The notes beneath the pieces are model-generated. The model was given only the letters and a program-made list of their open reading frames with translations, was not told where the DNA came from and did no database searches. A program made the translations under genes and the position numbers. Positions 2,991-64,000 of a stretch of DNA of 64,000 nt are shown here, piece after piece. The DNA comes from a virus, in the IMG/VR virus record IMGVR_UViG_3300025018_000100. The stretch is one strand, 5' to 3'. Positions within the stretch are counted from its first letter, which is position 1. Every line of letters begins with the position of its first letter.

Positions 2991-3857
2991 ATGGATATGA
3001 GTTGGGATGATCTCGCAGGTCTTGAGGAACAGCGAGAGAATGCTCGTAAGAATTTACTATTAGTAGACGGCAACAACGTCGCTTATAGATATATTAAACG
3101 GGCTAATTATAATAATTTCACAGAAGATTATATTAGAACAGTAGAGAGTTTGGCAAAAAGTTATGATGCTAGACGTACAATCATTTGTTTTGATTTTGGT
3201 AAAAGCTATTACAGAAATAGTATATACCCAGAATATAAAGATAATAGGTCTCCTCCAAAAGACCCAGAAGAAAAAGAAAAGTATGATGAGTTTTTTAATT
3301 GTTTAAATTTCACTATTGATCTTCTAGCAGAACGTAATATGGAATATTATAAACTCAGAGGTGTTGAGGCTGACGATCTATTAACATTTTTTGTACAAAA
3401 CTTATCTGATGAATACGAACACACTTGGATAATTAGTAGTGACCGAGACTTATATCAACTTTTAGAAGAAGATATTAGTATTTTTAATATGTTTTCACGT
3501 AAAGAAATTACGTTAGAAAGCTTAAAAGAAGAACATAATTGTTCTCCAGAACAACATATGCTTGCTAAGATTATTCAAGGAGATAAGAGTGATAACATTT
3601 TTGGTATTGATGGAATTGGTGAAAAAAGAGCTTTAGATTTAGCTATTAAATATCATAACTTAAATAATTTAATCGCTAATCTACCTATTAAAGGTAGTAA
3701 AGCTAAATATATTGCTAATTTAAACGCAGGCAAAGATAAACTCATTCTTAATGAACAATTAGTTAATCTGGTAGAATATAATCAGCAAGCTATTGAAATG
3801 GGAAAGGAAGAGTCAGAAGGTTGGCAACAACTTCAAAGCGCTCTTATTTATAAATGA
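2991..3857 (+). CDS. 5'-3' exonuclease / flap endonuclease, T5 D15-like
   Basis: LLVDGNN, YPEYKDNR, GVEADD, SSDRD, GDKSDNIFGIDGIGEKRA (H3TH). Confidence 0.92.
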   Translation: MDMSWDDLAGLEEQRENARKNLLLVDGNNVAYRYIKRANYNNFTEDYIRTVESLAKSYDARRTIICFDFGKSYYRNSIYPEYKDNRSPPKDPEEKEKYDEFFNCLNFTIDLLAERNMEYYKLRGVEADDLLTFFVQNLSDEYEHTWIISSDRDLYQLLEEDISIFNMFSRKEITLESLKEEHNCSPEQHMLAKIIQGDKSDNIFGIDGIGEKRALDLAIKYHNLNNLIANLPIKGSKAKYIANLNAGKDKLILNEQLVNLVEYNQQAIEMGKEESEGWQQLQSALIYK

Positions 3858-4093
3858 TATTTTTCGGTAACGGAGAAAAATCTTTAGCAGAAGCTTATTT
3901 TTTAATTAAAGACTTAATTAAAGCTTTCGATATTTTGAACGGTCTTCAACAAGGGTATATAAATAAAGAAGAAAGAGAAGAATTAGAATATGAAGTATTA
4001 GCAGTTAGAAAAAAAATTTTTAATGCTTTAAGTATAAATAAAGATGATATGTTAATCCTTAATAGATTTGGTGAATTAAAAAATGAGAAATAA
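3854..4093 (+). CDS. Hypothetical protein
   Basis: ORF overlapping both neighbours. Confidence 0.55.
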   Translation: MIFFGNGEKSLAEAYFLIKDLIKAFDILNGLQQGYINKEEREELEYEVLAVRKKIFNALSINKDDMLILNRFGELKNEK

Positions 4094-37605: not shown

Positions 37606-40593
37606 TTAAGCGCTACGTAATACAGACGCTAGGCTGTACTGGCTACTTAGGGTTGGAGCAGTTGAAGTACCTACAGTTGTAAGTGGCTTCATATCGAAAC
37701 GAGTGCTCATGTAAACCGCAGTTACCTGCTGACGAGGATTATACTCGCTTTCAATTTCCATTGCACGACGTTCTGCAATCATAAATCCTGGCTTGTATAA
37801 TAATAGACCAATATGATCATCATTTGCACCTGCAGCGTCTAAGAACTCTGTAATCATTACAGGCATTCCATAAACAGCACCGATGCTACCAGTTAGATAG
37901 GTTGCGTTTGGTCCGTACTTATCAACGGTACGGAAATCAGAGGTCTGAACAAGTTCATTATAACCTTCGATTGTTGTTAAGTAAACTAAATCGTCACCTA
38001 ACTGTAATCCGTACTTACCAAGTTTAGCGCGTGCAGCAGCAATATTTGCTGGAGTAGCTGCTGTAGAAGCTCCACAGTTAACTCTTAATCCTGCAACATC
38101 ATTAGCAAGAGTAACAAGACCCTTCATAACAGATGCATAACCAGCACCAGGAGTAATTGCGTTAGTTGGGCTAGCATTAAACCCTGTTAGGGTTCCATCA
38201 CCACGAAGTAGTGACTTATCGATAGCACGAGCAACACGACGAGCAGCATCAGCTCTTAGGAAGTCAATAAGAGGAAGAACTGTATCTTCCTGCTCATCTT
38301 TCGCTAAATGAGTGGTCGCCATCCATTTGTGTGGAGTAAAGCGAACTGATGATATAGTATTCTGGTTACTAGTTGGAACACGAGTAGCATCATAAGCACC
38401 AGTCGCAAAGGTTCCGTTGGCAAACTGTGCTACATCACCGTCAACATCTTCATTAGTTACAGGAACATCGAAGCTCTTAGCATCTACTTGAATGCGTCGG
38501 AACATGGGCACGATAACTAATTGCTGTTGCATTTCTTCATAGACAGTGCTAGAAAAGTTGCTTAAGAACTGGTCAACAGTTGTAATGGCTTTCATTTTAG
38601 AACCAAAATTGGTGTCAAAAACTTGCTCGTTATTCTTACCAAGAGCCTTAGCAAGAAATACAGCATTAGCCATTTCTTTATCTGTGAATTGAGCCTTACG
38701 TGAAGGATCGTTATTTTGATTGTAGACCATCTTAGAATTTTGTAAGGCATTAACAAGCTCTTTCTGCTTCTTAATTTCTTGCATTAGTTCTTCAACTTGG
38801 TCGGATAAGCTTGTATCACCACGAATTTCTTCGTTATCAGCAGCTTTATTCATTGTTTGTTCGGTCTTATTTAGTAAGTCCTGAACTTGAGGTTCCTTAA
38901 CTTGAGCTACAGAATTTGGAGCATTCTCCGCTTTAGCGCCGGTGTTAACTACCATTGGTTCATCAACATTTTGAGTAGGCATATCTTTTTTCTCCTCTTG
39001 ACTCTCTGCCTTATGACCGTTTAAGATTAACTGTAAATTACGGTCGTCAGACTCGGGTAATCCCTTGAGAGCCTTAATTTTTTCAACTACTCTATTTGCT
39101 AGAGCGTAGTTAGTATCATTCCAATCTTTAAAATTGGTTGCAATTAAATTGTATGTGTTGTTTAAAGTAATTTGCTGTTCTTGTGTAGTAGCAGAAGACT
39201 TTAAATTATTTAGATCGATTTCTTTTAGATTTACATGTTCTACGAAACCTTTCTTAATTTCTTCTCTTTGTTTGTCTGTTAGGTTAGTTACTTTAGCGTG
39301 TTTAACCATTTTAATATCAAACTTAGTACCAATATCCCAGGTGTTAATTACAGAAAGATCAGTTGCTTTGATAGAAACAGCCTCTCCAATAACTTCACCT
39401 TCTACACTTACAGGTTCAACAATAAAGTTAGGGTTTGTTTGAGTAGCAATATTTTTAATCTTGTGTCGAGAACCATCAAGTTTGACAAAATCATCAGCTT
39501 TAAGTTCTCCGGTTGACATACTTAGTAAGTTAACAAAAGGAATAGCCTTATATGGGTCTGCTTGAGTCTCTTCATCTACGGTTTCTTTGATATTAGAATC
39601 TGTAGGAACAGAAGTATCAGTTTTAGTATTAGGTTGTTCTACTGCTGAGTTTTCGTTTTTATCTTCAACGTCAGCTTTTGTAGATTCACTATCATTAGTT
39701 TTTCCTTCTGTAGGAATTTCTAATTTAACTGTTTCTTCTGCCTGATTCATATCTTTAACTTCTGTTTCAGAAGCTTTATTTTCGGAATTAGGCATATTTT
39801 TATTCTCCTCGTCGGTAAGTAGTTCTTCAATATTATTGAAATTACTTTCAATTTCCATTTCTGGTAGTTTTGAAGAGTCCTTCCAAATTTGAACATCATG
39901 ACTATGACCATCTTCAGCAGATTTAATTTCATAATTAACTACATCGTGGTTATGTTTTTGGCCATGAGAGGTGTAAGTTGCGGTACCGTTACCATCCGCA
40001 TCTACTTCAAATGTATGATAGTGACCATCTTTATGAATTTCAGAAATTCCGGCCTTAACTACTGTTGTATCTTCGTTTTTATCAACAACTTCTTCTAAGA
40101 ATGATTTATAATCCTCATTGTTGTCAAAACTTTTACGAACACTAAACAGACTATCTTGATTACAAGGTACACTTACTATACTAATTTCTAGTAACTCTAG
40201 TTCTGTAATATAAGTGGTATCTGTTTTTCTATCATATCTAGCACGTTTTGGTCGAAATCCTACACTAAAAGCTTTTAAAGCACCGTCTCGAACTAATGTT
40301 CTAGTACCGTACTGTTTTTCAGCAGCTTCGCTGATATCAGCTTCTACGTGAATGCCCTTGTTATCAAGACGCATTTTTGTAACTTTACCAATCGGTTGAT
40401 CGTGTTTATGTTGAAGAAGAAGCACAGGGTTTTTTAAGTATTCCTGAGCACCTTTTGTCCAAGCGGAAGGAACAATGACGTCACCGGTTCTATCTCTTGA
40501 GACAGTATTTGCATATCCTGAGATACTTAAACCTTTACTTTGTTCAGTAGATTTAATTTCCATACTATCTAAATAGAGGGTTTTCTTTGACAT
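37606..40593 (-). CDS. Fused HK97-type prohead protease - scaffold - major capsid protein
   Basis: ISGYAN...DRTGD, LLQH, AFSVGF, LEISIVSVPCN protease motifs; C-terminal capsid (ARAKLGKYG, GAVYGMPV, IESEY). Confidence 0.9.
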   Translation of the reverse strand: MSKKTLYLDSMEIKSTEQSKGLSISGYANTVSRDRTGDVIVPSAWTKGAQEYLKNPVLLLQHKHDQPIGKVTKMRLDNKGIHVEADISEAAEKQYGTRTLVRDGALKAFSVGFRPKRARYDRKTDTTYITELELLEISIVSVPCNQDSLFSVRKSFDNNEDYKSFLEEVVDKNEDTTVVKAGISEIHKDGHYHTFEVDADGNGTATYTSHGQKHNHDVVNYEIKSAEDGHSHDVQIWKDSSKLPEMEIESNFNNIEELLTDEENKNMPNSENKASETEVKDMNQAEETVKLEIPTEGKTNDSESTKADVEDKNENSAVEQPNTKTDTSVPTDSNIKETVDEETQADPYKAIPFVNLLSMSTGELKADDFVKLDGSRHKIKNIATQTNPNFIVEPVSVEGEVIGEAVSIKATDLSVINTWDIGTKFDIKMVKHAKVTNLTDKQREEIKKGFVEHVNLKEIDLNNLKSSATTQEQQITLNNTYNLIATNFKDWNDTNYALANRVVEKIKALKGLPESDDRNLQLILNGHKAESQEEKKDMPTQNVDEPMVVNTGAKAENAPNSVAQVKEPQVQDLLNKTEQTMNKAADNEEIRGDTSLSDQVEELMQEIKKQKELVNALQNSKMVYNQNNDPSRKAQFTDKEMANAVFLAKALGKNNEQVFDTNFGSKMKAITTVDQFLSNFSSTVYEEMQQQLVIVPMFRRIQVDAKSFDVPVTNEDVDGDVAQFANGTFATGAYDATRVPTSNQNTISSVRFTPHKWMATTHLAKDEQEDTVLPLIDFLRADAARRVARAIDKSLLRGDGTLTGFNASPTNAITPGAGYASVMKGLVTLANDVAGLRVNCGASTAATPANIAAARAKLGKYGLQLGDDLVYLTTIEGYNELVQTSDFRTVDKYGPNATYLTGSIGAVYGMPVMITEFLDAAGANDDHIGLLLYKPGFMIAERRAMEIESEYNPRQQVTAVYMSTRFDMKPLTTVGTSTAPTLSSQYSLASVLRSA

Positions 40594-58852: not shown

Positions 58853-58880
58853 ATATGGGGGGAAGCAATTCCCCCCATAT
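58853..58880. terminator. GCAA-tetraloop hairpin
   Basis: ATATGGGGGGAA-GCAA-TTCCCCCCATAT; U-run only on - strand. Confidence 0.7.
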
Positions 58881-58886
58881 ACCTAC

Positions 58887-59019
58887 CTGAATTGCGAATG
58901 ATTATCATTCCTGACTGAATTGCGAATGATTATCATTCCTGACTGAATTGCGAATGATTATCATTCCTGACTGAATTGCGAATGATTATCATTCCTGACT
59001 GAATTGCGAATGATTATCA
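58887..59019. repeat. Tandem array, 4.75 x 28 bp, each unit containing a Fur-box core
   Basis: Unit CTGAATTGCGAATGATTATCATTCCTGA at 58887, 58915, 58943, 58971, partial at 58999; AATGAT-T-ATCATT palindrome. Confidence 0.95.
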
Positions 59020-59045
59020 AGAGAAAAATAGTTAAAAATTTTTCT

Positions 59046-59120
59046 GCACCTGTACGAAATCGAAATAAAAAAGTGAGAAAGTAAGTGCCAAATTTAGATT
59101 TAGCACCTGTATGAAAACGA
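59046..59120 (+). repeat. 18-bp direct repeat pair
   Basis: GCACCTGTACGAAATCGA (59046) and GCACCTGTATGAAAACGA (59103). Confidence 0.8.
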
Positions 59121-59176: not shown

Positions 59177-59205
59177 TTGACTAGTATTAATATAAAGACT
59201 ATATT
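59177..59205 (+). promoter_or_regulatory. Early sigma70 promoter
   Basis: TTGACT-17 nt-TATATT with A-rich UP element. Confidence 0.8.
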
Positions 59206-59237: not shown

Positions 59238-59441
59238 ATGTTTTACGAAAGAGTTACCAAAGTCACACAAGACTGGTTAAACACTCTCAGAAACAATGCT
59301 TCAAGAAAAGACTTTGTAGTTGGTTCTATGTGCGCTAAAATGGGACTAGCTTTAGCTACAGCGGAGAGAGCCCAAAAAAGTGACGATCTTAAGACAATAC
59401 AAGAGGATTTAGAAAGGATTATTAAAATCTTAGAGAAGTGA
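59238..59441 (+). CDS. Hypothetical early protein
   Basis: AAGGAG RBS, promoter and terminator. Confidence 0.75.
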   Translation: MFYERVTKVTQDWLNTLRNNASRKDFVVGSMCAKMGLALATAERAQKSDDLKTIQEDLERIIKILEK

Positions 59442-59486: not shown

Positions 59487-59543
59487 AATCAATTAATTAT
59501 ATTATTACCCGCCGTAGGCGAGTTATCAGTTAAGTTGTTAAAA
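59487..59543. repeat. 57-bp IHF-hairpin-IHF module, copy 1
   Basis: AATCAATTAATTA-7 nt-ACCCGCC GTA GGCGAGT; promoter TTGACA 59563 / TACAGT 59586. Confidence 0.8.
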
Positions 59544-59619
59544 ATAAACGATAATTTAGTTGTTGACATTGCTTTATTTTACCGATACAGTCTATATATC
59601 GAAACAAAGGAGAAAGACT

Positions 59620-59853
59620 ATGTCACGTCACAGCAAACAAGAAACCTTGATCGCTACATCTTTTGTAAAAGAAACAGAAAAAAGTTGGGTGGTCATGTTT
59701 TACGGTACTAAAGCAGTCCTAGCCAAGAGCATGTGCGAACATGATGGGGGTTTGCAATTTTCCATCCCTAAATGGTTGTACAAGAAAATCATGGAAGCAG
59801 AAGAAAAAAATACAGATAACTTCTATGAAGAACAAGCTTTGTTGCTGGCTTAA
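59620..59853 (+). CDS. Hypothetical early protein
   Basis: AAGGAG RBS before ATG 59620; ETEKSW...IPKWL. Confidence 0.75.
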   Translation: MSRHSKQETLIATSFVKETEKSWVVMFYGTKAVLAKSMCEHDGGLQFSIPKWLYKKIMEAEEKNTDNFYEEQALLLA

Positions 59854-59856
59854 CAT

Positions 59857-59898
59857 AAAAGTCTCTTAGAGATATCCAGGCTCTAAGAGACTTTTTTT
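59857..59898 (+). terminator. Intrinsic terminator
   Basis: AAAAGTCTCTTAGAG...CTCTAAGAGACTTTT. Confidence 0.85.
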
Positions 59899-59905
59899 GT
59901 TTAAT

Positions 59906-59962
59906 TTTCAATAGGTTAGCTGGCGACCCGCCGTAGGCGGGTTAGCGGCTAACACGTTGATA
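59906..59962. repeat. 57-bp module, copy 2
   Basis: TTTCAATAGGTTA-7-ACCCGCC GTA GGCGGGT-7-TAACACGTTGATA; promoter TTGACA 59982 / TATATT 60005. Confidence 0.9.
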
Positions 59963-60060
59963 ACAAACAATAATTATTTTGTTGACACACTAAGGGAAAA
60001 ATCTTATATTATTTATATCAAGACGAGGCAATAATGCCACATAGGAAAAGGAGAATTACT

Positions 60061-60273
60061 ATGCTACGCCGGATTGAGAATGTTAACTGCAAAGATGAAA
60101 ATGGCCTGTCAAGCACAATTGCTGTTATTCAAAAAGCGGTAGACAATAAGGGTAATACCCTTGCTTATAGCGTTGCTTTCGCAGACGGCACAACCGTTGG
60201 CAATATTCCCCGGCTGGGAGAGGCTCGCGCTATCGCAGTCAAAGGTAAGGTTCAACAGCAAGAAGCTGCATAA
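60061..60273 (+). CDS. Hypothetical early protein
   Basis: AAGGAG RBS before ATG 60061. Confidence 0.75.
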   Translation: MLRRIENVNCKDENGLSSTIAVIQKAVDNKGNTLAYSVAFADGTTVGNIPRLGEARAIAVKGKVQQQEAA

Positions 60274-60398
60274 TTCCACAATTTCCAAAGGGTAAGAGAT
60301 ATGACACATAATTCAAGAGACTCCCCTTAAAAAGAAGACAAGGGTTGTGGGATTTTGGTAAAGCAACCGTTAATTTAGATAGATATATAAGAGAAAAT

Positions 60399-60432
60399 AA
60401 AAAAACGTCCAGCACATGCTGGACGTTTTTTT
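60399..60432. terminator. Bidirectional terminator
   Basis: AAAAAAACGTCCAGCA-CA-TGCTGGACGTTTTTTT. Confidence 0.85.
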
Positions 60433-60439
60433 ATTTATT

Positions 60440-60496
60440 TTTCAATAGGTTAGGTGACGACCCGCCTACGGCGGGTTAGCGGCTAAACCATTGTTT
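60440..60496. repeat. 57-bp module, copy 3 (TAC loop)
   Basis: ACCCGCC TAC GGCGGGT; promoter TTGACG 60516 / TATATT 60539. Confidence 0.9.
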
Positions 60497-60571
60497 TTAA
60501 ACAATAATTTAGTTGTTGACGTAATACTTTTTAAGACTTATATTAATAACATAATTATTAGGAGAAAAAAT

Positions 60572-61129
60572 ATGCGAAGCCCTTTAGAATTAGTTAGCAT
60601 GCTTAATAGATGTGGTCTTATTAAGATCGGGGAAGGGTCTTATGCTGAGGTCTATGCTAAAAAGACAAAAGACTTTGCTTATAAAGTAGGTAATATGTAC
60701 CTTGATGAAAATGATGGTTGGTTTCAGTATGCTAAATTAGCAAAAAAGCATAGTGCTAATAATCCGTACTTCCCTGAAATTAGTTTTATTAGGGGATCTG
60801 CAAGGGCTTATATAGCTAAAATGGAATTTATTCCAAAAACGTTATTTGATATTAGAGACGGTGTTTATAATAAGTCATATGAAATTGATGATAGTTTATG
60901 GCAAGTATTTTACGAAGACAAAAATTCAACACTTGTACAAAAATTATATGAACAGAACCCAGAATTTTTTAAATTTTTAAAAGATGAAAAATTCTGGGAA
61001 GCTGTATCACTTATCAAGGAATATATGAAAGATTTTCCCGATATGGATTTAGATATACACGACCGTAATATAATGATAAGAGAAAACGGGCAAATAGTAA
61101 TTACAGACCCTTACCTAGAAGGGTATTAA
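60572..61129 (+). CDS. Ser/Thr protein kinase-like (T7 gp0.7-like kinase domain), paralog 1
   Basis: IGEGSYAEVY, AYKV, MEFI, DIHDRNIM, VITDP; AGGAG RBS before ATG 60572. Confidence 0.8.
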   Translation: MRSPLELVSMLNRCGLIKIGEGSYAEVYAKKTKDFAYKVGNMYLDENDGWFQYAKLAKKHSANNPYFPEISFIRGSARAYIAKMEFIPKTLFDIRDGVYNKSYEIDDSLWQVFYEDKNSTLVQKLYEQNPEFFKFLKDEKFWEAVSLIKEYMKDFPDMDLDIHDRNIMIRENGQIVITDPYLEGY

Positions 61130-61157
61130 ACACTGACACCAAAAACAGGAGATTTCT

Positions 61158-61622
61158 ATGTTGTTGAATAGTATGAAAATAGAAGACTTTGTCGATATCA
61201 TTAAAAATGATATCGATAATTCTGGAGAAACTATGGGCGATATTCACATTAGCCTTGTGAAAAATTTGCTTAAAGTTTCAACAAGTACTATTGATAGTAG
61301 TAAAACTATCAATATGCTTATTAAGTATTCAAAAGTTATCGGGTCTGAAATTGTGAACAGGGCCGTCTACGAAACTATCTTGGCTTCTGAAAGTCAGAAA
61401 GTGTATAAGTGGAGTATTATCGGGTATAAAAACGATTTGCTTACTGATAAGATTAAAGCAATCGTCGCTATTCGCAAAACTATTAGCGATATGTCTTTGA
61501 TGGAAGCTAAGGGAATTATGGAAAATGACAAGTACCTTTTTGCTAATGTGAGTACTGTCACAAAACTTAATAAGGAAATTATGCCTTACGGTTTTATTGC
61601 GGTTCCACAAAGTAGCTATTGA
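61158..61622 (+). CDS. Protein with ribosomal L7/L12 C-terminal-like domain
   Basis: DKIKAIVAIRKTISDMSLMEAKGIME. Confidence 0.65.
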   Translation: MLLNSMKIEDFVDIIKNDIDNSGETMGDIHISLVKNLLKVSTSTIDSSKTINMLIKYSKVIGSEIVNRAVYETILASESQKVYKWSIIGYKNDLLTDKIKAIVAIRKTISDMSLMEAKGIMENDKYLFANVSTVTKLNKEIMPYGFIAVPQSSY

Positions 61623-61656
61623 CTCATATATTAATTAGAGTAGAAAAAGCCAGTTA

Positions 61657-61713
61657 AGTCAACAACTTAGCTGGCGACCCGCCGTAGGCGGGTTATCAGT
61701 TAAGTTACTGATA
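61657..61713. repeat. 57-bp module, copy 4
   Basis: AGTCAACAACTTA-7-hairpin-7-TAAGTTACTGATA; promoter TTGACT 61733 / TATATT 61756. Confidence 0.9.
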
Positions 61714-61791
61714 ACAAACTATAATTTAATTGTTGACTATATAGTAGTGTAAGACTATATTATTTTTACTGAAAAACAGAAAGGATACGTT

Positions 61792-61980
61792 ATGCACAGG
61801 GCAAGAAAAGATTATGTAATTATGGAAGCAAAGAAACAAGCTAAGTACGACCCTTGGAGTAGTAAAATCAGGGAATTGTTGACAGGGGAAGAAATTAATG
61901 TTATAAACAGGCATTGGCAAAAAATGAAAGGAATTGCTAGCTGGTTTGATGCGTTTATGGATTTACCTGTTGATAGCTAA
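61792..61980 (+). CDS. Hypothetical early protein
   Basis: AAGGA RBS. Confidence 0.65.
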   Translation: MHRARKDYVIMEAKKQAKYDPWSSKIRELLTGEEINVINRHWQKMKGIASWFDAFMDLPVDS

Positions 61981-62023
61981 TATAAGTTATTGACTTAGTA
62001 ACAAAACGATTATATAGTATGTT

Positions 62024-62154
62024 ATCGAAATAAAATTACCCTGTGGGGAAAGGGGGAGTTAATACCTCCGGAATTTCGCAGCATAAGGGTTTTTCTCCTT
62101 CTTACCTTGTGCGCGGTACTAGTCTCTCAGGTCAGAAACCTGAGAGACTTTTTT
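62024..62154 (+). ncRNA. Candidate small RNA with anti-Shine-Dalgarno loop
   Basis: Promoter TTGACT(61990)-17 nt-TATAGT(62013), no ORF, two hairpins, terminator 62121-62154. Confidence 0.65.
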
Positions 62155-62161
62155 GTTTATA

Positions 62162-62218
62162 TTTCAACGACTTAAGTGACGACCCGCCTACGGCGGGTGA
62201 GAGGCTAACCTGTTGATT
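62162..62218. repeat. 57-bp module, copy 5 (TAC loop, no adjacent promoter)
   Basis: TTTCAACGACTTA-7-ACCCGCC TAC GGCGGGT-7-TAACCTGTTGATT. Confidence 0.9.
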
Positions 62219-62230
62219 AACCTCACTTTT

Positions 62231-62623
62231 TTACACTGTAAGTTCAATAATTTCTACAAATTGTTGCAATTCTTCTTTATTCCAACCCCCAGCACTTTTA
62301 GCATCCGAAGTGTCTGTGCCGTCTACAAGATGATTTAAGAGTGTAATAAAAAATTTTTCAATAAAGTCTTTATCCTCTTGATAAATAGCCTTAAGGATAA
62401 ATTCCCAAGAATTGATACGTTTTGTTAGAGGCAGTTTATCAACCTCATCAAAGCACCACTTTAACATATCATAATGTAAAGAACCAGTATTCTCAATTTT
62501 CACCTTAAAAAGTCCGTGAGCCAAAGATTTGATAGCTACTTCTTTTTTTATTTCAGATGAAAGATTTAAACTTTCAATATAATTTCTGTAATCTTGCAAA
62601 TCCTGCTTAGAACAATAATCCAT
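62231..62623 (-). CDS. Hypothetical protein
   Basis: AAGGA RBS. Confidence 0.7.
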   Translation of the reverse strand: MDYCSKQDLQDYRNYIESLNLSSEIKKEVAIKSLAHGLFKVKIENTGSLHYDMLKWCFDEVDKLPLTKRINSWEFILKAIYQEDKDFIEKFFITLLNHLVDGTDTSDAKSAGGWNKEELQQFVEIIELTV

Positions 62624-62680
62624 GATGTATCCTTTCTTAAGAAATTGTTGTTACATATAATAACAAATATCTACTTTATG

Positions 62681-63010
62681 TCAATAGACTTCCTTACGAA
62701 AATTATACATATAAGTAAAATCAGAACACTCGATAGAAAAAGACTCTTGGTTTAGTTCGTCCTTCAATAAAATTCCTAAACGGCAAGCGTGTATTTTAAT
62801 ATCCTTAAATTTTGATGGAAATCTGGGATAATTAATAAAATCTACTCTTATACCTTTTTCTTGCCCATGAGTATATACGTATTCTGTTGTAGATATAGAA
62901 ACACACAACCCAACATTATCGCAGTAATCACGACATACTACAGTAGCTTTGTCAATATCCCCCGCAATCCAAATTGTTGCATGAAAGCTGTTTGAACGAA
63001 TAACTTGCAT
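62681..63010 (-). CDS. Phage hypothetical protein
   Basis: AAGGA RBS before ATG 63010; CRDYC..GLCV...Y.YT.G.E.G...INYPRFP. Confidence 0.75.
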   Translation of the reverse strand: MQVIRSNSFHATIWIAGDIDKATVVCRDYCDNVGLCVSISTTEYVYTHGQEKGIRVDFINYPRFPSKFKDIKIHACRLGILLKDELNQESFSIECSDFTYMYNFRKEVY

Positions 63011-63085
63011 TATATAATTTCCTTTGTTGATTAATAAGAATATATCACATTTTGCATGAAATGCAACAAATAAATTAATCAACGT

Positions 63086-63142
63086 TTTCAACAGTTTAGC
63101 TGGCGACCCGCCGTAGGCGGGTTAGCCGCTAACCCCTTGTTT
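63086..63142. repeat. 57-bp module, copy 6, between divergent promoters
   Basis: TTGCAT -35 boxes on both sides (63061-63066 on -, 63162-63167 on +), each 19 bp from the module. Confidence 0.9.
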
Positions 63143-63218
63143 TTAAAAGATAATTTAGTTGTTGCATTTATTTATAAACTAGCTATACTAGCTATAGCAA
63201 ATTTAAAGGAGACATTAA

Positions 63219-63815
63219 ATGAGTGTACGAAAAATAGTGAAACGACTAAGAAAAACAGGATTAGTACGTATTGGTGAAGGCTCTTTCGGAGTAGCAGTTG
63301 CACCTGAAAGTAGAGAATATGTGTACAAAATTGGAAGTATTAATAATCTCTTAGATGGTTGGTACTATTTTGGACAATTAGCTATGTTGCATAGTGATAA
63401 TCCTTATTTTCCTAAAATTGAAAAACTCCAAGGAACCTCACAAGCATATGTTGCTAAAATGGAATATATACCCTCAGAAGTTACAACATCGGCGTCAATA
63501 AAGTGGGAATTAGGAGACTATATTAAAAACTGGTTATCTCCTACGGATGAATATAGTACAGAATGGTATAAAAAAGACAGTGATTTTATAAAAAGTTTTC
63601 CATTCACTGCTGATCCACTATTTTGTGACGCACTTTCAATTATGAGTTTTTATCTTGAAGATATTAAACGTGAGTTAGGAATAAATATATACTTTGATAT
63701 ACATGAAGGTAATTTTAGATGTAGGGAAGATGGACAGTTAGTAATTATTGATCCATTTGCTATTGAAGAAACAGATAGCTACTCAGGAATGTCTGAGTCT
63801 TGGTTCTGGGCCTAA
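63219..63815 (+). CDS. Ser/Thr protein kinase-like, paralog 2
   Basis: IGEGSFG, VYKI, NPYFP, AKMEYIP, DIHEGNF, VIIDP. Confidence 0.8.
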   Translation: MSVRKIVKRLRKTGLVRIGEGSFGVAVAPESREYVYKIGSINNLLDGWYYFGQLAMLHSDNPYFPKIEKLQGTSQAYVAKMEYIPSEVTTSASIKWELGDYIKNWLSPTDEYSTEWYKKDSDFIKSFPFTADPLFCDALSIMSFYLEDIKRELGINIYFDIHEGNFRCREDGQLVIIDPFAIEETDSYSGMSESWFWA

Positions 63816-63826
63816 AAAGTTAGCTA

Positions 63827-63883
63827 AGTCAATGACTTAGCTGACGACCCGCCGTAGGCGGGTTAGAGGCTAACACGTTGATT
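63827..63883. repeat. 57-bp module, copy 7
   Basis: AGTCAATGACTTA-7-hairpin-7-TAACACGTTGATT; promoter TTGACA 63913 / TATATT 63936. Confidence 0.9.
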
Positions 63884-64000
63884 TTAAACGATAATTATTT
63901 TTAAAATAGTTGTTGACACTAAATCTAAAATAATCTATATTAGTTAAATCAAGAGCGGATAGAATACCTTACCGCTAGGTTTTAGTCGCTTACATATTAG

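Follow-up and report, generated by a model that had tools for sequence, protein, structure and literature searches.

Phages of the T5 type seize the cell from short linear DNA, with host proteins only. The mechanism by which their strong pre-early promoters operate in the first-injected state is, to our knowledge, poorly understood. At lambda pL and Mu Pe, an IHF site overlaps the A/T-rich region directly upstream of a strong sigma-70 early promoter. At N4-type promoters, a hairpin with a 5–7 bp stem and a 3-nt loop is situated at the start site and is read by the virion RNA polymerase. The Correia repeat enclosed elements (CREEs) of Neisseria are MITEs of about 100–155 bp.

The CREEs are small and palindromic, with promoters at either or both ends, IHF binding and RNA hairpins (PMC2649163). 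IHF stimulation of lambda pL has been tied to supercoiling (Giladi et al. 1992, as cited in PMC1874639, ref. 51). The PeSLs of T4-type phages have been discussed as possible recombination patches, in papers that contain 0 occurrences of IHF (PMC2839356, PMC4122927). In the description of the T5 terminal repeat, IHF appears merely as passing speculation (Davison, bioRxiv 10.1101/866236).

An array of modules in pre-early DNA

The DNA analysed here, a stretch of 64 kb referred to as the window, derives from a phage that, judging by its proteins, is T5-like and uncultured; its TerL is ~40% identical to those of Demerecviridae, and its A2 and Dmp are of the T5 type. The phage comes from an aquifer metagenome. 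A preliminary description of the window had reported seven 57-bp modules with a 13 + 7 + 17 + 7 + 13 layout. All seven were located, via the core, at the starts it had given (Table 1), and the lengths of the parts never vary. The core, ACCCGCC-NNN-GGCGGGT, was found seven times in the 64-kb window with no more than one mismatch (at 59507, 59926, 60460, 61677, 62182, 63106 and 63847), while 0 occurrences were expected from 100 shuffles. Copy 1 is the most degenerate, with GGCGAGT in its core, an AT-only left spacer and two mismatches in its right arm.

When the source contig was walked, the seven modules of the window proved to be the start of an array of 22 modules, which extends for ~15.4 kb (window-equivalent 59487 to 74916). 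All 22 are intergenic, and every one is located between transcription units. The block that contains the array carries the T5 pre-early markers A2-like and Dmp-like, and modules are restricted to that block. The inner spacers are asymmetric, and a single genome orientation was observed for 22 of 22 modules, regardless of gene direction.

Table 1. Modules, promoters and terminators between positions 59487 and 63941 of the window
Feature	Position	Strand	Details
Module 1 (degenerate)	59487..59543	+	Left arm AATCAATTAATTA, core ACCCGCC-GTA-GGCGAGT, right arm TAAGTTGTTAAAA; first of the array
Sigma-70 promoter, module 1	59563..59591	+	TTGACA-17-TACAGT, gap 19 bp
Module 2	59906..59962	+	Terminator T-run before left arm; right arm (bottom strand TATCAACGTGTTA) exact IHF consensus
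Promoter, module 2	59982..60010	+	TTGACA-17-TATATT, gap 19 bp
Bidirectional intrinsic terminator	60395..60436	.	T-run is the A/T tract of the module 3 left arm
Module 3	60440..60496	+	Core loop in TAC orientation
Promoter, module 3	60516..60544	+	TTGACG-17-TATATT, gap 19 bp; drives T7 gp0.7-like kinase paralog
Module 4, class B	61657..61713	+	Left arm within hairpin GCCAGTTAAGT/ACTTAGCTGGC, A-run before hairpin; right arm exact IHF consensus
Promoter, module 4	61733..61761	+	TTGACT-17-TATATT, gap 19 bp
Intrinsic terminator	62121..62155	+	Closes rightward unit directly ahead of module 5
Module 5	62162..62218	+	Convergent junction, no promoter
Module 5 right arm			Within hairpin GAGGCTAA/TTAACCTC, then T-run (to 62230)
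Leftward promoter, module 6	63039..63066	-	TTGCAT-16-TATATT, gap 19 bp; -35 within palindrome TTGCAT-gaa-ATGCAA
Module 6	63086..63142	+	Divergent promoters on both flanks
Rightward promoter, module 6	63162..63189	+	TTGCAT-16-TATACT, gap 19 bp; drives second kinase-like paralog
Hairpin AGCTAAGTC-ATT-GACTTAGCT with minus-strand T-run	63822..63842	-	Overlaps left arm of module 7
Module 7, class B	63827..63883	+	Right arm exact IHF consensus
Promoter, module 7	63913..63941	+	TTGACA-17-TATATT, gap 29 bp (19 + 10)

Similarity of the arms to IHF sites

As had been claimed, an exact WATCARNNNNTTR is present on one side of copies 1, 2, 4, 5 and 7; copies 3 and 6 have one mismatch in each arm. When all 44 arms of the array were scored against the known IHF core consensus, WATCAANNNNTTR, on the assumption that the host has an IHF with this consensus, 17 were exact, 26 had one mismatch and 1 had two. 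Because these arms were located via the core alone, and not via an arm motif, they represent an unbiased sample. All 44 fit the pattern A/T tract, 8 nt, W-A-T-C-A-A-N4-T-T-A(G), with W1 conserved in 100%, T3 in 39, C4 in 43, A5 in 44, A6 in 42 and TTA in 44 of the 44, and with N4 variable. Position 2 of the left arms is mostly T or G, not A, and 19 of the 22 left arms have one mismatch. A palindrome, TTAGC-N-GCTAA, falls outside the IHF consensus.

The reported fit of the 13-mers to the IHF consensus was thus borne out at every defined position, and a second IHF determinant was added, namely an A/T tract separated from the core by 8 nt on its outer side; across the 44 arms, positions -12 to -8 consist of A or T in 100% of cases. 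The H' site in the lambda record, AAAAAA-GCATTGCT-TATCAATTTGTTG, has the same geometry of tract, 8 nt and 13-mer. A G at position 14 is ~80% conserved and is absent from the IHF consensus, which may point to a different reader or to a preference of the particular host.

Spacing between modules and promoters

Twenty sigma-70 promoters are carried by 18 of the 22 modules. The distance from module edge to -35 is 19 bp for 15 of them, 29 bp for four and 39 bp for one, with no other distances among the 20; the centre of the arm is situated at about -61, -71 or -81, respectively. The A/T tract on the promoter side spans about -46 to -41, where the proximal UP subsite is situated. Script checks reproduced the gaps previously noted, with 19 bp at the rightward promoters of copies 1, 2, 3, 4 and 6, the same value at the leftward one of copy 6, and 29 bp at copy 7. 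The proposed helical phasing is consistent with these data, since the gaps take only the values 19, 29 and 39 bp and distant relatives also keep to the 19-bp rule. The module had further been called bidirectional, and modules 63086 and 71132 are indeed flanked by promoters, so that either or both sides can be used. Three of the four 29-bp gaps contain an almost identical insert, so that the number of independent spacing events is only about three. Four of the 22 modules (copy 5 in the window) lack a promoter, so the modules must do more than activate promoters.

Hairpins and terminators at the module arms

The far-side arm and an intrinsic terminator have one A/T tract in common, and the module is thus, in addition, a marker of where the adjacent transcription unit ends. 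In class A the terminator hairpin is situated outside the tract, while in class B and in leftward units it covers the arm itself. Hairpins of 8–12 bp, with compensatory changes and adjoining A or T runs, are formed by the left arm in seven cases (class B) and by the right arm in five.

Such compensatory changes, and the location of all modules between transcription units, would be expected if the modules were mainly RNA-level or recombination cassettes like the T4-type PeSLs, in which hairpins terminate, process or stabilise transcripts, the promoter-terminator repeat provides a homology patch for gene shuffling, and no protein reader of the arms is required. Also in keeping with this idea is a 1.1-kb contig from another sample in which module 63827 is joined to the promoter of module 72471, with 8.6 kb skipped, but this sole junction contig may be an assembly artefact; Logan contigs break at repeats. 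It is apparent, moreover, that none of the 20 promoter-side arms folds into a hairpin, yet all 20 retain TCAA-N4-TTA and the tract. Structure alone does not account for the conservation of TCAA and TTAG, with N4 free, in phages of 30–54% GC, and in the sense direction no U-run follows the class-B hairpins. A cassette function of this kind is, consequently, unlikely to be the principal one.

The central palindrome

In the window phage, the centre folds, as single-stranded DNA, into a 7-bp GC stem with a 3-nt loop, at -8.4 kcal/mol (z -3.9), and the fold of the whole module has -15 kcal/mol (z -4.3). The stability of both would suit a cruciform reading, in which the central C-GTA-G hairpin is extruded and serves as the recognised signal, as at the N4 early promoters to which the preliminary description had referred. 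In most relatives, however, the centre is shorter, rich in GC and particular to the phage (examples are GGCGCC and GGGCCCCGGCCC), and the relatives' centres fold no better than shuffles (z +0.34); their inner spacing is usually 22 bp, as against 31 bp here. The hairpin is located ~75–91 bp upstream of ordinary sigma-70 promoters, away from the start site, and freshly injected DNA would be linear and, if relaxed, without the supercoiling to drive extrusion. A centre that is not conserved, and that in most relatives does not fold, is not supported as the signal, nor is the likeness to N4, since both position and polymerase type are wrong. A cruciform signal is scarcely credible on these data.

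The same GC-rich centre resembles a REP palindrome, and in E. coli BIMEs REP palindromes occur together with the binding of IHF and of gyrase (PMC3333891, PMC6379681). The module might accordingly be envisaged as a BIME-like topological insulator, in which IHF bends lie on either side of a palindrome that recruits gyrase or another topoisomerase and each strongly transcribed unit is torsionally isolated on the injected linear DNA. The position of modules at unit boundaries, promoter-less convergent junctions included, would agree with this. The order of parts is, however, the opposite of that in BIME-1 (REP-IHF-REP), the centres in relatives are short and non-folding, gyrase sites are without evidence, and strict 19-bp coupling to the -35 would be needless for an insulator, all of which makes it a highly unlikely explanation.

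Modules in related phages

A motif scan of the genome and its relatives yielded, in addition to the 22 modules of the source contig, 143 unique modules with the same arms, A-tract and 19-bp rule at 26 other loci (viral and metagenome contigs). No modules were found in T5 or in Vibrio phage AG74. In 286 arms of relatives, at positions outside the search pattern, W1 is conserved in 94% and A2 in 67%, and the tract is 84–99% A/T and A-rich. Among 159 unique modules (16 from the window phage), -35-like hexamers peak sharply at 19 bp, with 49 against a background of ~3–5. Retention of the spacing in related phages, on which the preliminary description had staked its proposal, was evident from the relatives alone, which under strict criteria gave 10 at 19 bp, 3 at 18, 1 at 20, 3 at 38–39 and 1 at 49. 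The arms are conserved in phages of 30–54% GC whose centres differ, a pattern that fits a conserved host factor.

It was also considered whether the arms, the centre or both might be operators for a phage-encoded protein (the A2-like helix-turn-helix protein or another pre-early product), the IHF match being coincidental; such a protein could serve pre-early shutoff or timing, or prepare the DNA injected first, by organising it, for second-step transfer. The centre is constant within one phage and different between phages, neither G14 nor the TTAGC-N-GCTAA palindrome is part of the IHF consensus, the genome orientation of modules is fixed, A2-like genes co-occur at 20 of the 26 loci, and A2 is annotated as a DNA-binding protein in the T5 record, all of which an operator could explain. 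The arms, on the other hand, are asymmetric, unlike typical dimer operators, and lie at -55 to -67, the position of an activator and not of a repressor; pre-early promoters, furthermore, have to fire ahead of any phage protein. T5 and AG74, which are without modules, share the conserved A2 motif, and that of the window phage is unlike those of the relatives despite arms of identical pattern. When 31 pre-early proteins were queried, only A2-like, Dmp-like and HNH proteins were widely common to module-bearing relatives, leaving no further widely conserved candidate. Recognition by a phage protein is thus rather improbable.

Proposed function

The anatomy, copy number, spacing rules and conservation across phages of the module, and its restriction to pre-early DNA, are established. 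The reading favoured here, to which we assign a probability of roughly 0.55, is that a host IHF-type protein binds both arms, that the arm on the promoter side is an architectural activator whose effect depends on the helix face, and that the module marks unit boundaries. The module would then be a composite boundary and promoter element of pre-early (first-step-transfer type) DNA. Each 13-mer, with the A/T tract 8 nt outward, would constitute an H'-type site for the host bending protein, and a bend at about -61 (or -71, -81) would let the upstream DNA wrap around RNA polymerase on one helix face. The predicted outcome is strong, host-only transcription of freshly injected DNA, ahead of any phage protein. 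The GC-rich centre may be a phage-specific linker, either a stiff spacer or a site for a second phage-specific or topological factor. IHF binding, bending and activation are our inference.

The fixed orientation of the modules and their asymmetric inner spacers are unexplained by a model with IHF only. A more speculative proposal, offered tentatively and as a minority view, is that of an undescribed, self-contained nucleoprotein boundary element in which two host IHF bends clamp a phage-specific GC linker read by a second factor (a phage protein or topoisomerase). Each pre-early gene would be an insulated host-only unit, the orientation would reflect a process specific to strand or direction, such as DNA entry, and the element would be an invention common to a large uncultured T5-like clade.

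The putative IHF-type site occupies class-I-like positions relative to the promoter to which it is tied (-61, -71, -81), in a module repeated more than 20 times per genome and common to many uncultured phages. That IHF is a general pre-early host factor is a cheaply testable hypothesis, for which the modules constitute a natural spacing-variant series. The module also provides a sequence signature for pre-early regions in metagenomic T5-like contigs, and a source of compact bidirectional promoter and terminator parts.

Comparison with known systems

The T4-type PeSLs (PMC2839356, PMC4122927) are similar to the modules in combining a repeated terminator stem-loop with an early sigma-70 promoter among small early genes. 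They have neither the paired asymmetric 13-mers nor a centre rich in GC, and their place is in hyperplastic regions of T4-like myoviruses, whereas the modules are found in T5-like pre-early DNA. The likeness to PeSLs drawn in the preliminary description therefore stands for the terminator-promoter composite but not for the type of phage. With N4 hairpin promoters the modules cannot be grouped, since the hairpin here is not retained in relatives and is located far upstream of sigma-70 promoters.

Correia elements share with the modules the form of small palindromic repeats with a promoter at one or both ends. CREEs, however, have one central IHF site between terminal inverted repeats in a bacterial chromosome and are mobile with a target-site duplication, while in the modules the IHF-type sites are terminal, the centre is GC-rich and the whole is locked to promoter and terminator geometry in a phage. 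BIME-1/RIP of E. coli (PMC3333891, PMC6379681) is likewise an extragenic mosaic, found where transcription units end, of an IHF site with palindromes rich in GC, but BIME-1 has two inverted REP palindromes on either side of one IHF site (REP-IHF-REP) and is not promoter-coupled, in contrast to the IHF-type/palindrome/IHF-type order of the modules.

The T5 terminal repeat (Davison, bioRxiv 10.1101/866236) represents the same compartment, i.e. first-injected DNA with A2, dmp and proposed host-factor sites. Its repeats differ from the modules, comprising paired DnaA boxes inside clustered inverted repeats in a non-coding block; 0 paired-arm modules were found in it, and only 4 DnaA-box matches, scattered, were found between 57 and 78 kb here, unlike the injection-stop signal (iss) type of T5. 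Further parallels are from lambda and Mu. The H' site of lambda attP has the same three parts as the module arms (A-tract, 8 nt and WATCAANNNNTTR). As compared with lambda pL and Mu Pe, the putative sites here are inverted pairs around a GC-rich centre, repeated 22 times, and are situated at a fixed 19 (+10n) bp from the -35, with promoter-less junctions in addition.

Extent of the module array

The preliminary description counted seven modules; all lie where it placed them, and the number proved to be an underestimate. The core ACCCGCC-NNN-GGCGGGT occurs seven times in the window (0 expected by chance), and every copy has the layout 13 + 7 + 17 + 7 + 13, the outer figures being the 13-bp arms. 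A walk along an ENA contig extended the array to 22 modules, from 59487 to 74916 in window-equivalent coordinates, all of them (22/22) intergenic. Strict inverted arm pairs numbered 16 in the 83-kb extended sequence, versus 0.75 in shuffles, and all 16 fall within the array. The left inner spacer, GNTGRCG, and the right, TAGNGGC, keep one orientation in 22/22 copies, even between leftward genes; 19 of the core loops are GTA and the other 3 are TAC.

Searches of genome and metagenome contigs with the core pattern yielded, among the matches listed, only chance matches in GC-rich genomes, and viral contigs gave 0 matches to the full-core pattern and 0 to a GGCGCC-centre pattern. Logan contigs stop at each module, and apparent joints are repeat artefacts. 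In L321, a short contig from another sample of the same study series, a kinase gene and module 63827 (named by its start) run straight into the promoter and Dmp gene that belong to module 72471. This junction skips 8.6 kb via a 76-nt shared stretch; it is either an assembly artefact or a deletion variant that arose when modules recombined.

The phage and its pre-early block

The window contains T5-like structural genes of a siphovirus (large terminase, portal, major tail protein and a 1700-aa tape measure). Identity between the window's TerL and those of the Demerecviridae is approximately 40%, and the G+C content is approximately 32%. An identity look-up with a window protein identified near-identical contigs, a 200,719-bp ENA contig and a 33-kb JGI contig; the sequencing runs with window DNA are labelled aquifer metagenome, and none of those listed is an RNA data set. 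A 995-aa ORF matches head maturation protease and major head protein families in PHROGs over its N-terminal residues 10-315, and may encode a protease-capsid fusion.

Genes of the array block include an A2-like gene and a second A2 paralog, HNH and SprT-like genes, two tRNAs and a gene for a Dmp-like nucleotidase. The nucleotidase shares 31% identity with T5 dmp, a gene of the T5 terminal repeat. The last module is followed by approximately 2.4 kb of non-coding DNA and then by leftward genes. From this gene content (A2-like, Dmp-like) and the non-coding stretch after it, it is apparent that the array occupies the equivalent of the pre-early (first-step-transfer) DNA of T5. Among GenBank phages there was no megablast match to the module region and no tblastn match with either A2-like paralog, hence no close homologs of the A2-like proteins; a related-locus search with the Dmp-like and phrog_4848 proteins gave no match. 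Pfam returned nothing useful for the small pre-early proteins, and Rfam returned the two tRNAs and no other match in the region. The block also has two T7 gp0.7-like protein kinase genes, paralogs that have diverged, each with its own module and promoter.

Features in and around the module array. L322 denotes DNA of the same phage beyond the window.
Feature	Coordinates	Remarks
995-aa ORF	window 37606-40593	minus strand
Tandem array, 28-bp unit ATTCCTGACTGAATTGCGAATGATTATC	window 58879-59047	directly left of module array
Promoter TTGACT-17-TATATT	window 59177-59205	serves 67-aa gene at 59238; no module upstream
T7 gp0.7-like kinase paralogs	window 60572-61129 and 63219-63815	phrog_15752
Strong promoter TTGACT-17-TATAGT, module-less	window 61990-62155	then ~130 nt non-coding and intrinsic terminator
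Palindrome TTGCAT-gaa-ATGCAA	window 63046-63066; 70073 and 74860 (L322)	overlaps -35 of leftward promoters
Junction of modules 63827 and 72471	L321:1-1143	
tRNA-Leu(TAA), tRNA-Met(CAT)	L322:3485-3569 and 3797-3873	within pre-early block, in gaps without module
Two A2-like paralogs	L322:5635-5964 and L322:11098-11499	both match the same single A2-like gene of relatives
Non-coding DNA, ~2.4 kb	L322:12168-14628	after last module

Sequence of the arms

The 44 arms were collected via the module core only; since the modules were found by the core alone, these arms constitute an unbiased sample. Positions -12 to -8 are A or T in 44/44, and 8 variable nucleotides separate this tract from the 13-mer. 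Reading inwards (n=44), the 13-mer begins with W (44/44), an A/T-rich position, T (39), C (43), A (44) and A (42); four variable positions follow, then T, T and A (44/44 each), and then G (35). Compared with WATCARNNNNTTR, the IHF consensus assumed to hold in the host, 17 arms match exactly, 26 differ at one position and one differs at two. The three-part geometry of the module arms is also that of the lambda H' site, given in the lambda record as AAAAAA-GCATTGCT-TATCAATTTGTTG. In the whole window there are 24 exact consensus matches (14.0 ± 3.3 expected), of which five are module arms. It is the fit at every defined position, together with an A-tract at the right distance, that makes the IHF-type reading specific.

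Two other explanations of the arms were ruled out. As DnaA boxes they have 2 mismatches to the box and form no clusters. Selection for a hairpin over the whole module was rejected because the N4 segments of left and right arms are not complementary.

Promoters associated with the modules

Twenty sigma-70 promoters were found on 18 modules, 15 rightward and 5 leftward. The proposed bidirectional use is matched by modules 63086 and 71132, which have a promoter at either end. In line with the preliminary description, the -35 boxes lie at quantised distances from the module edge: 15 promoters have a gap of 19 bp, four a gap of 29 bp and one a gap of 39 bp, which accounts for all 20. A nearly identical insert is present in three of the four 29-bp gaps, so that independent +10 or +20 events number only about three. 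With a 17-bp spacer, the centre of the 13-mer lies at approximately -61, -71 or -81 and the A/T tract at approximately -46 to -41; these positions are those of class I activator sites and of the proximal UP subsite, respectively. The predicted reading of the modules by IHF, dependent on the face of the helix, is well supported by the sequence and by comparison. Four modules have no promoter: 62162, 68642 and 74179, at convergent junctions, and 73209.

The promoter serving the 67-aa gene is the only pre-early-type promoter in the window with a gene and without a module; its -10 and leader are the same as those of the module 4 promoter. The module-less strong promoter and the DNA after it look like a small RNA gene, for which there was no Rfam match. 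The palindrome at leftward promoters, which looks like an operator, is absent from rightward promoters.

Modules in related phages

Two contigs that share the gene layout were reached through Dmp homologs approximately 45% identical. Their pre-early regions contain 12 and 11 modules with the same arms, an inner spacing of exactly 22 bp, versus 31 in the window phage, and the centre GGCGCC. A search of IMG/VR with a variable-gap arm pattern gave at least 112 loci; among the matches listed, 24 loci have 3 to 24 modules each. These and the two Dmp-derived contigs make up a relatives' set of at least 26 loci and at least 143 unique modules (G+C 30-54%), and a pooled set of at least 159 unique modules, including 16 from the window phage.

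The inner spacing is 22 in 123 of the 159 modules and 31, 28, 23, 19-21 or 13 in the rest, among the matches listed. Centres are phage-specific, and in two loci arms accompany 19/19 and 25/26 centre matches. Positions outside the search pattern agree with the window phage: among the matches listed, the relatives have W at position 1 in 94%, A at position 2 in 67% and G at position 14 in 79%, and a tract, also outside the pattern, that is 84-99% A/T, mostly A. Conservation of spacing was likewise found. In the pooled set (at least 159 modules), -35-like hexamers lie 19 bp from the arm in 49 cases, 18 bp in 13 and 20 bp in 10 (background approximately 3-5), and the 19-bp peak recurs in the relatives alone under strict promoter criteria (10 at 19, 3 at 18, 1 at 20, 3 at 38-39 and 1 at 49).

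A2-like and Dmp-like genes occur in 20-22 of the 26 loci, among the matches listed, and no module enrichment was found in the T5 terminal repeat, Vibrio phage AG74 or 820 kb around the relatives' TerL genes. Taken together with the lack of close GenBank homologs of the A2-like proteins, these results indicate that the module marks pre-early DNA in a T5-like clade of uncultured phages.

In two of the relatives, L325 and L326, the hexamer CGAATC/GATTCG is far commoner than expected, with approximately 65 copies per 20 kb versus approximately 10 (a rough estimate for both strands). It is typically situated between the -35 and -10 of pre-early promoters and occurs also in repeats like AATCAGGCGCCAG; five CGAATC are present in the T5 iss region.

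A candidate reader of the arms

The arms are nearly identical among phages whose centres and proteins have diverged, which points to a conserved reader. When 31 pre-early proteins were queried, only the A2-like, Dmp-like and HNH proteins were widely common with the relatives. T5 and AG74, both of which lack modules, also have the conserved A2 motif (VRSKL...Y), and the A2 motif of the window phage is unlike that of the relatives, while the arms are alike. Because pre-early promoters must fire ahead of any phage protein synthesis, a host IHF-type protein is the most economical candidate for the reader, a prediction to which we assign a probability of about 0.55. IHF does not explain G14, the palindrome TTAGC-N-GCTAA or the way in which the asymmetric inner spacers keep one orientation on the genome.

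The centre and the hairpins over the arms

As single-stranded DNA, the centre of the window phage forms a stable hairpin of -8.4 kcal/mol (z -3.9), whereas a typical relative's centre folds no better than shuffles (z +0.34). The suggestion of cruciform extrusion, as in N4 early promoters, was therefore not borne out: extrusion is not the conserved property of the centre, which is conserved in its GC richness and its constancy within a phage. The two main inner spacings (31 versus 22) differ by 9 bp, approximately one helical turn; whether the two predicted bends are in phase or in anti-phase would turn on the position of the bend centre. A T5-type nick site was ruled out, as the T5 nick is pGCGC and GCGC is absent from the window phage's centre.

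Ten left arms (class A) follow an ordinary terminator, the T-run of which is the arm's A/T tract. Seven others (class B) are contained in a hairpin that has 9-12 pairs in its stem run and an A-run before it. Five right arms, which belong to leftward or convergent units, form part of an 8-bp hairpin that has a T-run after it. Compensatory changes are present in the arm-hairpin stems (e.g. GCCAG/CTGGC, GTTAG/CTGAC and GTCAAC/GTTGAC). Promoter-side arms have a hairpin in 0/20 cases, yet retain motif and tract in 20/20. The hairpins are thus an overlaid RNA-level or termination code, and what all arms have in common is the sequence motif.

Comparison with known systems

In T5, ATCATTCGCATTCAGG is located in the injection-stop repeat region adjoining the major nick. 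The reverse complement of the 28-bp tandem array contains ATCATTCGCAATTCAG, which is close to ATCATTCGCATTCAGG; the ENA contig is 84 bp (3 units) shorter than the window in this array. The non-coding DNA after the last module contains direct repeats, e.g. ACTAGTAGATAACCGAACAATTATTT twice, and GCGCAC-TTCG-GTGCGC hairpins, with no cluster of DnaA boxes, and may correspond to the injection-stop region of T5. The T5 terminal repeat has been described as having DnaA-box repeat regions, with IHF named only in passing (Davison, bioRxiv 10.1101/866236).

In the literature covered, on the T5 terminal repeat and the elements named below, no description was found of pre-early DNA in which paired IHF-type sites stand at a fixed distance from promoters. 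Among repeated promoter-terminator cassettes, the nearest are the PeSLs (promoter-early stem-loops) of T4-type phages (PMC2839356, PMC4122927), which, however, have no IHF component. Correia elements (PMC2649163) bind IHF, create promoters at their ends and form hairpins, but they are MITEs whose single IHF site is central, and in BIMEs (PMC3333891, PMC6379681) the order of parts is reversed. The known kinds behind the module are IHF-assisted phage early promoters and repeated promoter-terminator cassettes.
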